From: Microcystaceae cyanobacterium
GTDB lineage: Bacteria; Cyanobacteriota; Cyanobacteriia; Cyanobacteriales; Microcystaceae
Direction of reading: 5' to 3'
DNA: 32,653 nt
Assembly (NCBI GenBank): GCA_041746575.1
Contig: JBGTGT010000034.1
Span: 1 to 32,653, forward strand
A program made the translations under genes and the position numbers. The number at the start of each line of letters is the position of its first letter. Position 1 is the stretch's first letter. The notes under the pieces are model-generated. The model made no database searches. It was not told the DNA's origin and was given only the letters and a program-made list of their open reading frames with translations. Shown here piece by piece: positions 23,056-26,068 of this stretch.

Positions 23056-24843
23056 TTATTTTTCTCCCGTTTGAACGCGCCATAAATTGCCATAAATCTG
23101 ATTATTTTGGACTAATTGTGCATGGGTACCTTGTTCAACCACGGTGCCGTTTTCTAAGACATAAATCCAATCGGCATGGCGAATACTGGAGAGACGATGA
23201 GCGATCGCAATAGTGGTACGATTGTGGGTAATTAAATCTAAAGAGCGGGCAATTGCCGCTTCTGTTTCATTATCTACGGCGGACGTGGCTTCATCCAAAA
23301 TTAAGATAGGCGGATTTTTCAGTAAAGCACGAGCGATGGCTAACCGTTGTCGCTGTCCTCCTGATAATTTTTGACCCCTCTCTCCGACAATCGTATCGTA
23401 ACCCTGAGGTAACGTTTCAATAAAAGTGTGCGCTGCAGCTAATTTTGCAACCCGTACAATCTCCATAAAATTGGCATTCGGTGTACCATAAGCAATATTT
23501 TCTCTGACTGTGCCATGAAAAAGATAGACATCTTGACTCACTAAACCGATCCCTTGACGTAAATCCGCTAAGACAATATTGCGTAAATCTAGACCATCAA
23601 GCGTAATCGAACCGTCTTGAATTTCATACAAACGTAACAATAATTTAACTAAAGTACTTTTCCCTGCTCCCGTTGAACCTACAATTGCAATGGTTTGACC
23701 GGCAGGAATTTTTAGGGATAAATGGCGTAAGATAGGAGAACGATTTGGATAGGCAAACGTAACATTGTCAAAAATAATTTCACCTCTAATTTCGTAAGAA
23801 AGTAAAGGAATAGAACCCACATAAGTTTTAACGGGTGTATCCAGTAACTTAAACACGCGTTTACTCGAAGCCATTGCTCGCTGATAAAGGTCTAAAGTTT
23901 GTCCTAATCCCGTTAACGGCCAAAGTAATCTTTGTGTCAAAAAGACTAAAACGCTATATGTTCCTACTGCCAATTGTCCATTGACAACTTTCATGCCGCC
24001 AAAAAGTAAAATGGCAGTAAATCCCAACAAAATAACAATACGAATAAGGGGAACGAAAGCCGCACTAAGTTTAATAGCCTGTTGATTACTGCGACGATAG
24101 GCTTCACTTCTCTGTCTAATTTGTTCAATTTCATATTGTTCTGAAGTAAAGCTTTTAATCGTTACAATTCCACCCAAATTGTTACTGAGTTGACTATTAA
24201 GTTCACTTACTTTTTCCCTAACATTGCCGTAAAAAGGCGCAAGTTTTTTCTGAAAATAGACTGATCCCCATAAAATGAAGGGAATGGGTAAAATAGACAT
24301 CCAAGCAATATCAGGGGTTAGGATAAAAAATGCTCCTCCAATTACCAAAACAGTCGTTAAAACTTGTAATATTTCATTTGCGCCCACATCTAAAAAGCGT
24401 TCGAGCTGATTAATATCATCATTTAAAATAGATAATAATTCCCCTGTACTTTTTTCCTCAAAATAAGAGAGTTCCAAATTTTGGATATGTGTATAAGCAT
24501 CTATTCTTAGATGATGTTGGAGATTTTGGGCTAAATTACGCCACAATTGAGCATATAAATATTCAAAAAGAGATTCCAAACCCCAAATAATAAACGATAG
24601 AAACGTTAAGATTAAAAGTTGTGAAAAAACGTCTTTAACACCCCATCGAGCAATCAAAGAATCTTGTTGTTTGACCACTACATCCACCGCCGCTCCAATT
24701 AAAGCCGGTGGCGCCAGATCAAAAATTTTATTAAGAATCGAACAAAGACCTGCTAAATAGAATTTGTTACGATAATCTTGTCCATATTCTAAAAGTCTTT
24801 TTAGGGGAACAGAGGACGTCTTTCTAGAAGTTGCTTGAATCAT
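23056..24843 (-). CDS. ABC exporter, fused permease/ATP-binding (MsbA-like fold)
   Basis: TM domain plus GSTGAGKST, LSGGQRQR, ILDEATS, IAHRLS; start placed at ATG 24843. Confidence 0.93.
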   Translation of the reverse strand: MIQATSRKTSSVPLKRLLEYGQDYRNKFYLAGLCSILNKIFDLAPPALIGAAVDVVVKQQDSLIARWGVKDVFSQLLILTFLSFIIWGLESLFEYLYAQLWRNLAQNLQHHLRIDAYTHIQNLELSYFEEKSTGELLSILNDDINQLERFLDVGANEILQVLTTVLVIGGAFFILTPDIAWMSILPIPFILWGSVYFQKKLAPFYGNVREKVSELNSQLSNNLGGIVTIKSFTSEQYEIEQIRQRSEAYRRSNQQAIKLSAAFVPLIRIVILLGFTAILLFGGMKVVNGQLAVGTYSVLVFLTQRLLWPLTGLGQTLDLYQRAMASSKRVFKLLDTPVKTYVGSIPLLSYEIRGEIIFDNVTFAYPNRSPILRHLSLKIPAGQTIAIVGSTGAGKSTLVKLLLRLYEIQDGSITLDGLDLRNIVLADLRQGIGLVSQDVYLFHGTVRENIAYGTPNANFMEIVRVAKLAAAHTFIETLPQGYDTIVGERGQKLSGGQRQRLAIARALLKNPPILILDEATSAVDNETEAAIARSLDLITHNRTTIAIAHRLSSIRHADWIYVLENGTVVEQGTHAQLVQNNQIYGNLWRVQTGEK

Positions 24844-24861
24844 CGCAATAAGTAAGCGTAC

Positions 24862-25060
24862 TGTACTGTGGCACATTATATGACATAATGACAAGTTGGT
24901 GTTGCCCTTTAAAAGTCTCGCTAACCATAGCTTATCGCAATTTTAGAAGCCTTTCTACCATTTGAATTCGCTCAAATTAAACCTCGTCTTTTGGATATCA
25001 TTCTCCGCAAGTTGATCAATATTGAGCCATTACCGATGACCTATAATTAGTCACTGTACA
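24862..25060. mobile_element. 199-bp remnant with Tn7-like / type V-K CAST-like terminal inverted repeats
   Basis: Inward-reading ends TGTACTGTGGCACATTATATGACAT (+) and TGTACAGTGACTAATTATAGGTCAT (-), 19/25 identical; 11 bp from the tRNA-Pro 3' end; no 5-bp TSD. Confidence 0.75.
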
Positions 25061-25071
25061 TTTAAAGATAA

Positions 25072-25145
25072 TCGGGATGACAGGATTTGAACCTGCGACA
25101 TCCTGCTCCCAAAGCAGGCGCGCTACCAAGCTGCGCTACATCCCG
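25072..25145 (-). tRNA. trnP: tRNA-Pro(UGG)
   Basis: CGGGATG acceptor stem, D-loop CTTGGTA, anticodon arm CCTGC-TTTGGGA-GCAGG, T-loop GTTCAAATC; CCA not encoded. Confidence 0.98.
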
Positions 25146-25213
25146 TAATGTTCGACTAATAGTATAACCTAAAATTAACGACAATTGTAGATGTCGAATT
25201 TGGCAGTAAGAAT

Positions 25214-26068
25214 CTACAATTTTGTGTCGGAGTCGCCTTGTTGTTGTAAAAATTGAGCAACAATTCGATTGAATTCTGCGGAATGTTCTAGAAATACCCA
25301 ATGATTTCCAGAAACTTCCAGAATTTGTAGGTTTTTAAAATATTGGCAAAAGGATCTTAATTGCCATGCTGTGCGATTGAGTCCTTGCTCAGGTTTAATC
25401 AACAAGGTAGGGATTGTTATTTCTTCCGTTAATCCATCGTATAACATCACTTCATTAAAAATTTCGTTCCGAGCGGCAATCGTAAATTTGCTACCCCATG
25501 TTCCCTCTTTTTTTCGTTCTATTCCCGCTTTAAAGACTTGTTCTTGTAAAGGACTCCATCCCCGATATTGTTTTAATCGACGAGCAAACTTTTCAGCCGT
25601 TTCATAACGATTAAACGGCCCCATTGCCCGCAAAAAAGGCAGTCCCTTATAAAAGATAGGAAAAGTGATCTTAAACCATCGGGGAAACCGTTGAATAAAA
25701 ACAGGATCAACGAATATTAAACTCTTAAACAATTGAGGACTTTGCTTAATCCAAAGAGTGAGAATTTTGACCGCCCAAGAATGACCGAGAAAATGAGCAG
25801 ATGTCCAACCTAAATGCGCCATTAATGCCGTCAAATCTTCGATATAATCCTCAAAACGATAGCCACTTTCCGGCTTACTACTGTCTCCATGACCCCGTAA
25901 ATCTGGGGCAATAATATGATATTGGGATTGTAAATCGTCTCCCAAATTAGACCAAACTAGGGCATGATCCGCCATGCCGTGTAATAATAACAAGGGTTCA
26001 CTTCCTTGGTTCCATTCTAAATAAGATAAGTTAAGGGAAGCGCGTTGAAAATTTTGACGGGTAACCAT
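25214..26068 (-). CDS. alpha/beta fold hydrolase
   Basis: LLLHG, APDLRGHGDS, nucleophile elbow GHSWA, C-terminal GNHW. Confidence 0.9.
   Translation of the reverse strand: MVTRQNFQRASLNLSYLEWNQGSEPLLLLHGMADHALVWSNLGDDLQSQYHIIAPDLRGHGDSSKPESGYRFEDYIEDLTALMAHLGWTSAHFLGHSWAVKILTLWIKQSPQLFKSLIFVDPVFIQRFPRWFKITFPIFYKGLPFLRAMGPFNRYETAEKFARRLKQYRGWSPLQEQVFKAGIERKKEGTWGSKFTIAARNEIFNEVMLYDGLTEEITIPTLLIKPEQGLNRTAWQLRSFCQYFKNLQILEVSGNHWVFLEHSAEFNRIVAQFLQQQGDSDTKL

Follow-up and report, generated by a model that had tools for sequence, protein, structure and literature searches.

A 199-bp gene-less segment beside tRNA-Pro(UGG) in a Microcystaceae cyanobacterium is very probably the collapsed remnant of a type V-K CAST

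The window analysed here, a stretch of 32,653 nucleotides, is contig C34 (JBGTGT010000034.1) of a Microcystaceae cyanobacterium assembly (GCA_041746575.1; 4.2 Mb, 40% G+C, 99.78% complete, 134 contigs). A short segment with two inverted ends lies there between an ABC transporter gene and a tRNA-Pro(UGG) gene. The features of the locus, numbered from the first nucleotide of the window, are as follows.

23056-24843, minus strand: ABC transporter gene with fused membrane and ATPase domains (Pfam ABC_membrane 1.3e-40, ABC_tran 1.4e-35)
24862-25060, 199 bp: gene-less segment with two inverted ends beside tRNA-Pro(UGG), interpreted below as a V-K-derived relic
24862-24914, plus strand: putative tnsB-side end (RE), consisting of the 8-nt terminal TGTACTGT and the adjacent TnsB-site homologues R1 and R2 (match to relative G080)
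24973-24996, plus strand: third TnsB-site homologue, R3-like, with a degenerate 5' half-site (19/24 to the third site of G080)
24997-25010, no strand: junction of about 14 nt between the RE-derived and LE-derived parts, without significant match to either end
25011-25060, minus strand: putative tRNA/CRISPR-side end (LE), consisting of the terminal TGTACAGT, a good site L1 and a degenerate site L2 (matches to relatives G007, G080 and G028)
25061-25071, no strand: spacer from the end to the tRNA; 25061-25065 is the expected site of one copy of a 5-bp duplication
25072-25145, minus strand: tRNA-Pro(UGG), the attachment site (ARAGORN; Rfam RF00005, 69.5 bits, E = 6.6e-15)
25107-25123, minus strand: 17-nt protospacer GCGCGCCTGCTTTGGGA within the tRNA (16/17 to the homing spacer of G007)
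25124-25127, minus strand: GGTA, including the GTN PAM (read from the sequence)

The first-pass annotation had described the layout of the 199-bp segment, and this description proved correct in every element. The inward-facing ends comprise two arms of 25 nt each (24862-24886 and 25036-25060), which are complementary at 19 of 25 positions (76%) and enclose 149 nt, and the second site described in the left end, TGACAAGTTGGTGT, is present at 24889-24902. As had been stated, 11 nt (25061-25071) separate the right arm from the 3' end of the tRNA, and GGTA is read on the minus strand from 25127 to 25124, with exactly 63 nt between PAM and terminus. According to published descriptions, the homing guides of V-K CASTs use a GTN PAM (PMC9938897; bioRxiv 10.1101/2021.02.06.429022), and the distance from PAM to element end in cyanobacterial V-K CASTs is given as 46-82 nt (PMC9938897). 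The CRISPR-side end of the segment, 63 nt downstream of a GTN PAM, falls within this range, and the 17-nt protospacer sits in the tRNA gene pointing at the element. Measured at nine tRNA-Pro loci, of which the window is one, PAM and terminus are in every case 57-64 nt apart. An Rfam search over 24400-25400 returned the tRNA alone and no other RNA family.

Reference ends for the comparison of the two arms were taken from the elements of the relatives G007 and G080, in place of the ShCAST and AcCAST ends; the Cas12k of the G007 element matches ShCas12k with E = 1.6e-231 and its TnsC matches ShTnsC with E = 4.6e-125. The arm distal to the tRNA corresponds to the tnsB-side end of the G080 CAST, with 42 of 53 positions identical in an ungapped alignment that starts at nucleotide 1 and preserves the site spacing. 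When this 215-nt end of G080 was compared by BLASTN with the 4.2-Mb genome, positions 24862-24914 formed the top match (E = 8.9e-6; next best 0.056). A MAFFT alignment placed the arm collinear with ten other ends of the same subtype, nine of which come from a pattern scan of public genomes. Its layout is that of real ends, in which about 60 nt separate two abutting sites from a third. This third, R3-like site is offset from the terminus by 111 nt, versus 113 nt in G080; taken alone the match is marginal, its score being reached by 11 of 300 shuffles, and in the alignment it shares a column block with the third sites of the other ends. R2 carries four changes relative to G080, and the 5' half-site of R3 is gone. 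The RE-derived part thus delimited measures about 135 nt and holds three TnsB-site homologues.

Positions 24966-24996 were also considered as the decayed remains of a homing guide, a truncated repeat with its spacer, and this reading was rejected, the third RE TnsB site being the better fit. The 149-nt interior aligned with the tRNA-side regions of G007, G017, G080, G001 and G002, in both orientations, no better than shuffled sequence (the observed local-alignment scores were matched by 24 to 169 of 200 shuffles), and its stretch 24915-24972 has no significant match among all sequences searched. A TTGATCAA palindrome adjoining the junction can be assigned either to an R4-like site or to an L2-like one.

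The tRNA-proximal arm resembles the opposite type of end. It is identical at 27 of 29 positions to the terminus of G007 and at 26 of 29 to that of G080, and it shares 82% identity with the relic of G028 across 50 aligned columns with one gap. Searched against the whole genome by BLASTN, the tRNA-side ends of G007, G080 and G028 each gave their top match from 25060 down to 25032 or 25011 (E = 1.7e-5, 7e-4 and 1.4e-6, respectively; next best 0.11-0.37). Two end profiles were compiled from other genomes, one from 13 ends and one from 14, with the window sequence left out. In both, the right arm is the top-ranking match of the genome (E = 8.4e-7 with the 13 tRNA-side ends and 0.084 with the other) and the left arm comes fifth (E = 1.2 and 2.2), 199 nt from the right-arm match and inverted. 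The LE-derived part spans about 50 nt and contains L1 and a degenerate L2. The claim that the tRNA-proximal end keeps only a single TnsB-like site holds for the one good site, and not for the word "only", as the alignment with G028 reveals a degenerate second site. This L2 aligns with G028 only by means of indels, and L1 reads GGTC where 13 of 13 compared ends read TGTC.

Judged by these alignments, both arms are true V-K CAST ends, of two different kinds. The segment displays a TGTACA-type 8-nt terminus, multiple TnsB sites and layouts that differ between the two ends, in agreement with the ShCAST ends as described in the literature, which are asymmetric, with four sites and an 8-bp terminal sequence (PMC9371665, PMC9876797). 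Since the two ends of the G080 element share one duplication and the arms match both of them, the arms resemble the two ends of a single element type. No parent element with exactly these ends was found, the best match to the RE arm being 79%.

A 1.4-kb query around the site was run across 40 relatives. Matches joining the tRNA to the right arm (the last 18-29 nt of the arm) occur in at least 11 of the 40 among the matches listed. All ten relative loci that were inspected carry a TGTACA-type terminus 8-20 nt past the tRNA 3' end, in some cases with one to three changes; eight are at tRNA-Pro, and two at a tRNA whose anticodon loop reads UAC in the sequence. A full CAST stands at the tRNA-Pro(UGG) of G007. 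Its contig begins with tnsC and tniQ, followed by cargo, a MerR-type regulator gene and a Cas12k of 680 residues; beyond cas12k, a tracrRNA-like region and CRISPR repeats lead to a truncated repeat carrying a 17-nt spacer, and five TnsB sites and the terminus stand between this unit and the tRNA. The homing spacer that had been predicted for the segment is borne out by this element, which carries GGATGGATTGAAAG followed by GCGCGCCTGTTTTGGGA, 16 of 17 positions agreeing with the prediction. The guide unit lies about 180 nt inside the tRNA-side end, which is 62 nt from the PAM, and protospacer and PAM are the same as in the window. G017 and G276 hold an equivalent guide unit for another tRNA-Pro, while G080, with one cas12k match and one tnsB match, has its element at tRNA-Thr and a Cas12k 84% identical to that of G007. 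This arrangement follows the published V-K layout, as described, in which the left end lies downstream of the tRNA pointing at the element, the array reads toward the left end, and a truncated repeat with a 17-nt spacer follows the array (PMC9938897; 10.1101/2021.02.06.429022).

The relatives can be arranged as a decay series. It runs from full elements (G007, G017) through a cas12k stub of residues ~88-142 fused close to the end (G004) and ends with internal deletions between TnsB sites (G001, G002) to end-only relics beside housekeeping genes (G022, G018 and G021, with G001 and G002 also listed as end-only). At the tRNA-Pro(UGG) genes of G002 (L045) and G001 (L047), the tRNA-side ends jump from the first or second TnsB site to the last, which looks like deletion between repeated sites; behind the jump, about 30 nt are conserved between both of them and the full element of G007. 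In the three species of the genus, the distance from PAM to end is 58, 63 and 64 nt. Synteny allowed neither an ancestral nor an empty allele to be rebuilt: the tRNA neighbours differ among all three species, and in every relative inspected the ABC, tRNA and hydrolase genes are spread over different contigs or stand next to differing neighbours, so that no ancestral arrangement emerges.

More complex arrangements of V-K ends were also seen elsewhere. In G393 (L100, 780-1530), a perfect 51-nt palindrome (850-900) made of two V-K termini back to back lies in the CRISPR array region of a CAST located at tRNA-Val; the palindrome comes directly after the apparent tnsB-side end of a second element. 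Xenococcus sp. PCC 7305 (L107) has two V-K termini of opposite polarity 2 nt apart, within about 20 nt around 701-723, which from their arrangement indicates tandem elements. On one 2.7-kb contig of Phormidesmis priestleyi BC1401 (L103, L104), two identical tnsB-side ends face apart; two elements may lie side by side here, or a repeated element may have been assembled in this form.

Further copies of the segment were sought in the host genome and beyond. A 236-nt query (24840-25075) holding the 199-bp unit gave one full match in the host, the window itself, and neither the whole unit nor its interior was found in the 400 other genomes of the order searched. Partial matches occur in 68 of these 400 genomes, nearly all of them to the terminal 24-32 nt of the LE arm. 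At C46:22834-22848, on the minus strand, there is an exact 15-nt copy of the LE terminus, TGTACAGTGACTAAT, with neither site structure nor a nearby tRNA, which may be a further end scar or chance. TGTACAGTGAC-like sites at C11:121823 and C107:38106 fall within coding sequence and, lacking any site structure, were dismissed as chance matches.

V-K machinery was likewise absent from the host searches, consistent with the suggestion of the first-pass annotation that the element had lost its genes. The Cas12k of G007, which is positive in 80 of 301 genomes of the order, has no match in the host, nor did tblastn with two Cas12k proteins (E<=0.01) detect a cas12k gene; V-K tnsC and tnsB were not found with the G007 TnsC or by tblastn with eight V-K proteins, and no tnsB-tnsC-tniQ operon devoid of tnsA was found in this genome. 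The truncated-repeat motif occurs zero times in the host genome, where outside the tRNA the 17-nt spacer is nowhere preceded by a repeat, and the segment itself contains no tracrRNA, CRISPR array or truncated repeat with homing spacer. Hence none of the hallmarks of a functional V-K element (cas12k; the tnsB-tnsC-tniQ operon; tracrRNA, array and guide) was seen. The sole TnsB-like gene of the host is that of a Tn7-like element with tnsA, next to glmS on contig C126.

Other mobile-element genes were noted in the assembly. Contig C27 (3.4 kb) carries at 718-1151 a frameshifted V-K tniQ fragment (46% over 52 residues, E = 2.5e-7), with a weak match to the C-terminus of TnsC ahead of it; by its similarity, the fragment would be a second scrap of a lost Cas12k transposon. 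The element on C126 (8855-16668) lies directly downstream of glmS and comprises tnsA, tnsB, tnsC and a tniQ split into two frames, continuing with an integrase gene, an Eco47II-type restriction-modification pair and an IS66 transposase gene. Contig C104 (1550-8522) holds cas6, an unassigned gene of 590 residues, a cas7-like gene, a cas5-like gene and tnsD, and the genes of C126 and C104 together look like a type I-B-like CAST in their predicted content. A psaD gene is present on another contig of the assembly.

At the outer flank, the tnsB-side end abuts an intact gene. The ATG of the ABC transporter gene lies 18 nt outside the RE terminus, and the N-terminus of the protein belongs to the same length class as its orthologue in G001. 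The longest open reading frame called for this gene begins at a TTG (24894) inside the transposon end; since the G001 orthologue favours the ATG at 24843, automatic annotation may extend the ABC gene across 24844-24894 into the relic. The lack of a 5-bp target duplication, already pointed out in the first-pass annotation, holds: the left flank CGTAC (24857-24861) and the right flank TTTAA (25061-25065) agree at two of five positions. In the control element of G080, TGGGT stands at both ends (5/5), the two ends being on two contigs. As the duplication is missing, one clean insertion followed by internal deletion is not sufficient alone, and either an added change of the flank or two insertions must be assumed.

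Taken together, we consider it very probable that the segment is the dead shell of a V-K (Cas12k) CAST of the G007/G080 type, collapsed in place by deletion, with an outer flank that changed later. That a CAST here lost tnsBC, tniQ, cas12k and cargo, as had been proposed, is supported by the homology of both ends, the 57-64 nt geometry and the guide of G007. We infer the order and mechanism of the deletions as follows. A full element would have homed to tRNA-Pro(UGG) by means of a truncated-repeat guide, its 17-nt spacer pairing with GCGCGCCTGCTTTGGGA next to the GTN PAM, and its CRISPR-side end would have inserted 63 nt downstream of the PAM. An internal deletion between R3 or R4 in the RE and L2 in the LE may then have removed tnsB, tnsC, tniQ, cargo, regulator, cas12k, tracrRNA, array and homing guide. 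The missing duplication calls for a change of the flank at this point: beyond the tnsB-side end, DNA would have been replaced or deleted, so that the end now abuts the ABC gene and the duplication is gone. Later point mutations would have eroded the remaining TnsB sites, and these mutated sites, along with the missing proteins, suggest that the relic is now inert. A plausible mechanism is adjacent deletion by a TnsA-less, replicative, cointegrate-forming transposon, the replicative behaviour of V-K CASTs being discussed in the literature (10.1101/2021.02.06.429022, PMC11406308); the collapse of a tandem pair is a possible alternative route. Decay of this kind has precedent, for in one survey only 152 of 282 cas12k genes are reported with a nearby tnsBCQ operon, a figure that the authors ascribe to degradation (10.1101/2021.02.06.429022).

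In a variant of this history, two CASTs inserted successively or in tandem, and a deletion joined the LE of the younger element to the RE of the older one. We regard this variant as unlikely. It would account both for the lack of a duplication and for the different degrees of decay in the two arms, the LE arm being nearer to its best relatives (27/29) than the RE arm (42/53). Tandem or abutting elements do exist, as illustrated by the L107 termini, by the second-element end that abuts the CAST array at L100, and by the two cas12k genes 10 kb apart in G276; moreover, the ends at 58, 63 and 64 nt within the genus suggest repeated independent colonisation. Against it, both arms match the ends of a single element type, that of G080, whose ends share their duplication; re-insertion at a fixed distance would recreate the same 5-bp duplication; and the unequal similarity of the arms possibly reflects the sampling of relatives.

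A natural minimal V-K CAST still recognised by TnsB, whether a mini-element movable in trans or an immunity scar shielding tRNA-Pro, is improbable. Retention of the relic for a function, either TnsB binding that confers immunity on the site or tRNA transcription carried into the ABC gene, appears to us quite improbable as well. Several TnsB-site homologues are retained right at the insertion point, and V-K CASTs reportedly seem to have target immunity (PMC11406308). Furthermore, tRNA, relic and ABC gene lie on the same strand, and no sigma-70-type promoter was found on that strand within the relic toward the ABC gene. The allele is also identical in contigs of four hot-spring metagenome runs, which carry 23800-25100 without differences and end within the tRNA; none of the contigs in these four runs skips 24862-25060. 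However, all four runs come from a single study, the source sample may be among them, and rare variants do not show in contigs, so that the runs say little about polymorphism. Conservation is lacking, sister species differing in both relics and neighbours, and the sites are mutated. In RNA runs, only about 6% of the sampled words were present, probably those of the tRNA.

The first-pass annotation had offered as a second possibility a non-autonomous mini-CAST, two-ended and gene-less, which a full V-K CAST would have mobilised in trans and homed with its guide. Such an element would show both end types in the correct inversion and at the right distance and orientation to the PAM, as observed here; engineered ShCAST donors consist of such end pairs, with complexes described as forming on the first two sites of each end (PMC9876797), and the V-K tniQ scrap on C27 shows that V-K genes were once in the genome. 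Nevertheless, the proposal found no support and we judge it very unlikely. The segment exists in one genomic copy, its interior was not found in the 400 other genomes of the order, and it lacks the duplication present in the intact G080 element. Its LE has one good site, with GGTC in place of the otherwise invariant TGTC, and V-K proteins and guide are missing from the genome. Among 31 termini examined, an inverted terminus within 3 kb was found at one other place only (L100). The segment also lacks the features by which a MITE is recognised, namely dispersed copies with duplications and a transposase acting in trans. A chance inverted repeat in AT-rich intergenic DNA, which the short arms, the AT-rich region and the E-value of about 1-2 for the left arm alone with generic profiles might suggest, is refuted for practical purposes, given that the matches start at nucleotide 1 of real ends with genome-wide E-values of 1e-5 to 1e-6 and that site, orientation, distance and the guide in relatives are all as expected.

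As a collapsed CAST, the relic would represent an end-point of V-K decay, with about 135 nt of RE fused to about 50 nt of LE still at the homing site. Gene-less scars occur at tRNA genes in related cyanobacteria, and cas12k is found in only some of the at least 11 of 40 relatives that bear a terminus; counting such scars would sharpen estimates of V-K colonisation and loss at attachment sites. If TnsB still binds scars, they could affect re-invasion via target immunity, and were that reading true, the many end-only scars at the tRNA genes of cyanobacteria would influence which landing sites are open to CASTs. For genome engineering the relic offers nothing new, the mechanism being already established.

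In comparison with known systems, the relic shares with full V-K CASTs the 8-nt TGTACA-type terminus, the TnsB sites of about 20 nt and the asymmetry of the ends, as these are described (PMC9371665, PMC9876797), the left, CRISPR-side end that faces the tRNA about 60 nt from a GTN PAM (as reported in PMC9938897), and the 17-nt homing protospacer inside the tRNA. Unlike them, it measures 199 bp instead of tens of kilobases, is without genes, guide, cargo or duplication, and has mutated sites. The CASTs of G007 at tRNA-Pro(UGG) and of G080 at tRNA-Thr are nearest to both arms, but are complete or near-complete. With MITEs and engineered mini-transposon donors the relic has in common two inverted ends with no genes between them; it differs from both in its single copy, the missing duplication, the want of a cognate transposase and one end with about one usable site. 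A limited literature search brought up no relevant paper on gene-less or mini V-K elements, which may already be in print. The closest parallel is offered by the degraded Cas12k elements of two surveys (Hsieh and Peters, 10.1101/2021.02.06.429022; Ziemann et al., PMC9938897), which, as described there, decayed in place at a tRNA with end and tRNA still recognisable. By their description, both surveys start from a cas12k or regulator gene and their elements keep a cas12k remnant, so that a gene-less relic would escape such a search, although the supplementary tables may list gene-less scars. The decay of V-K CASTs is thus already documented, and the relic is an unusually compact decayed member of this group that involves no new mechanism.
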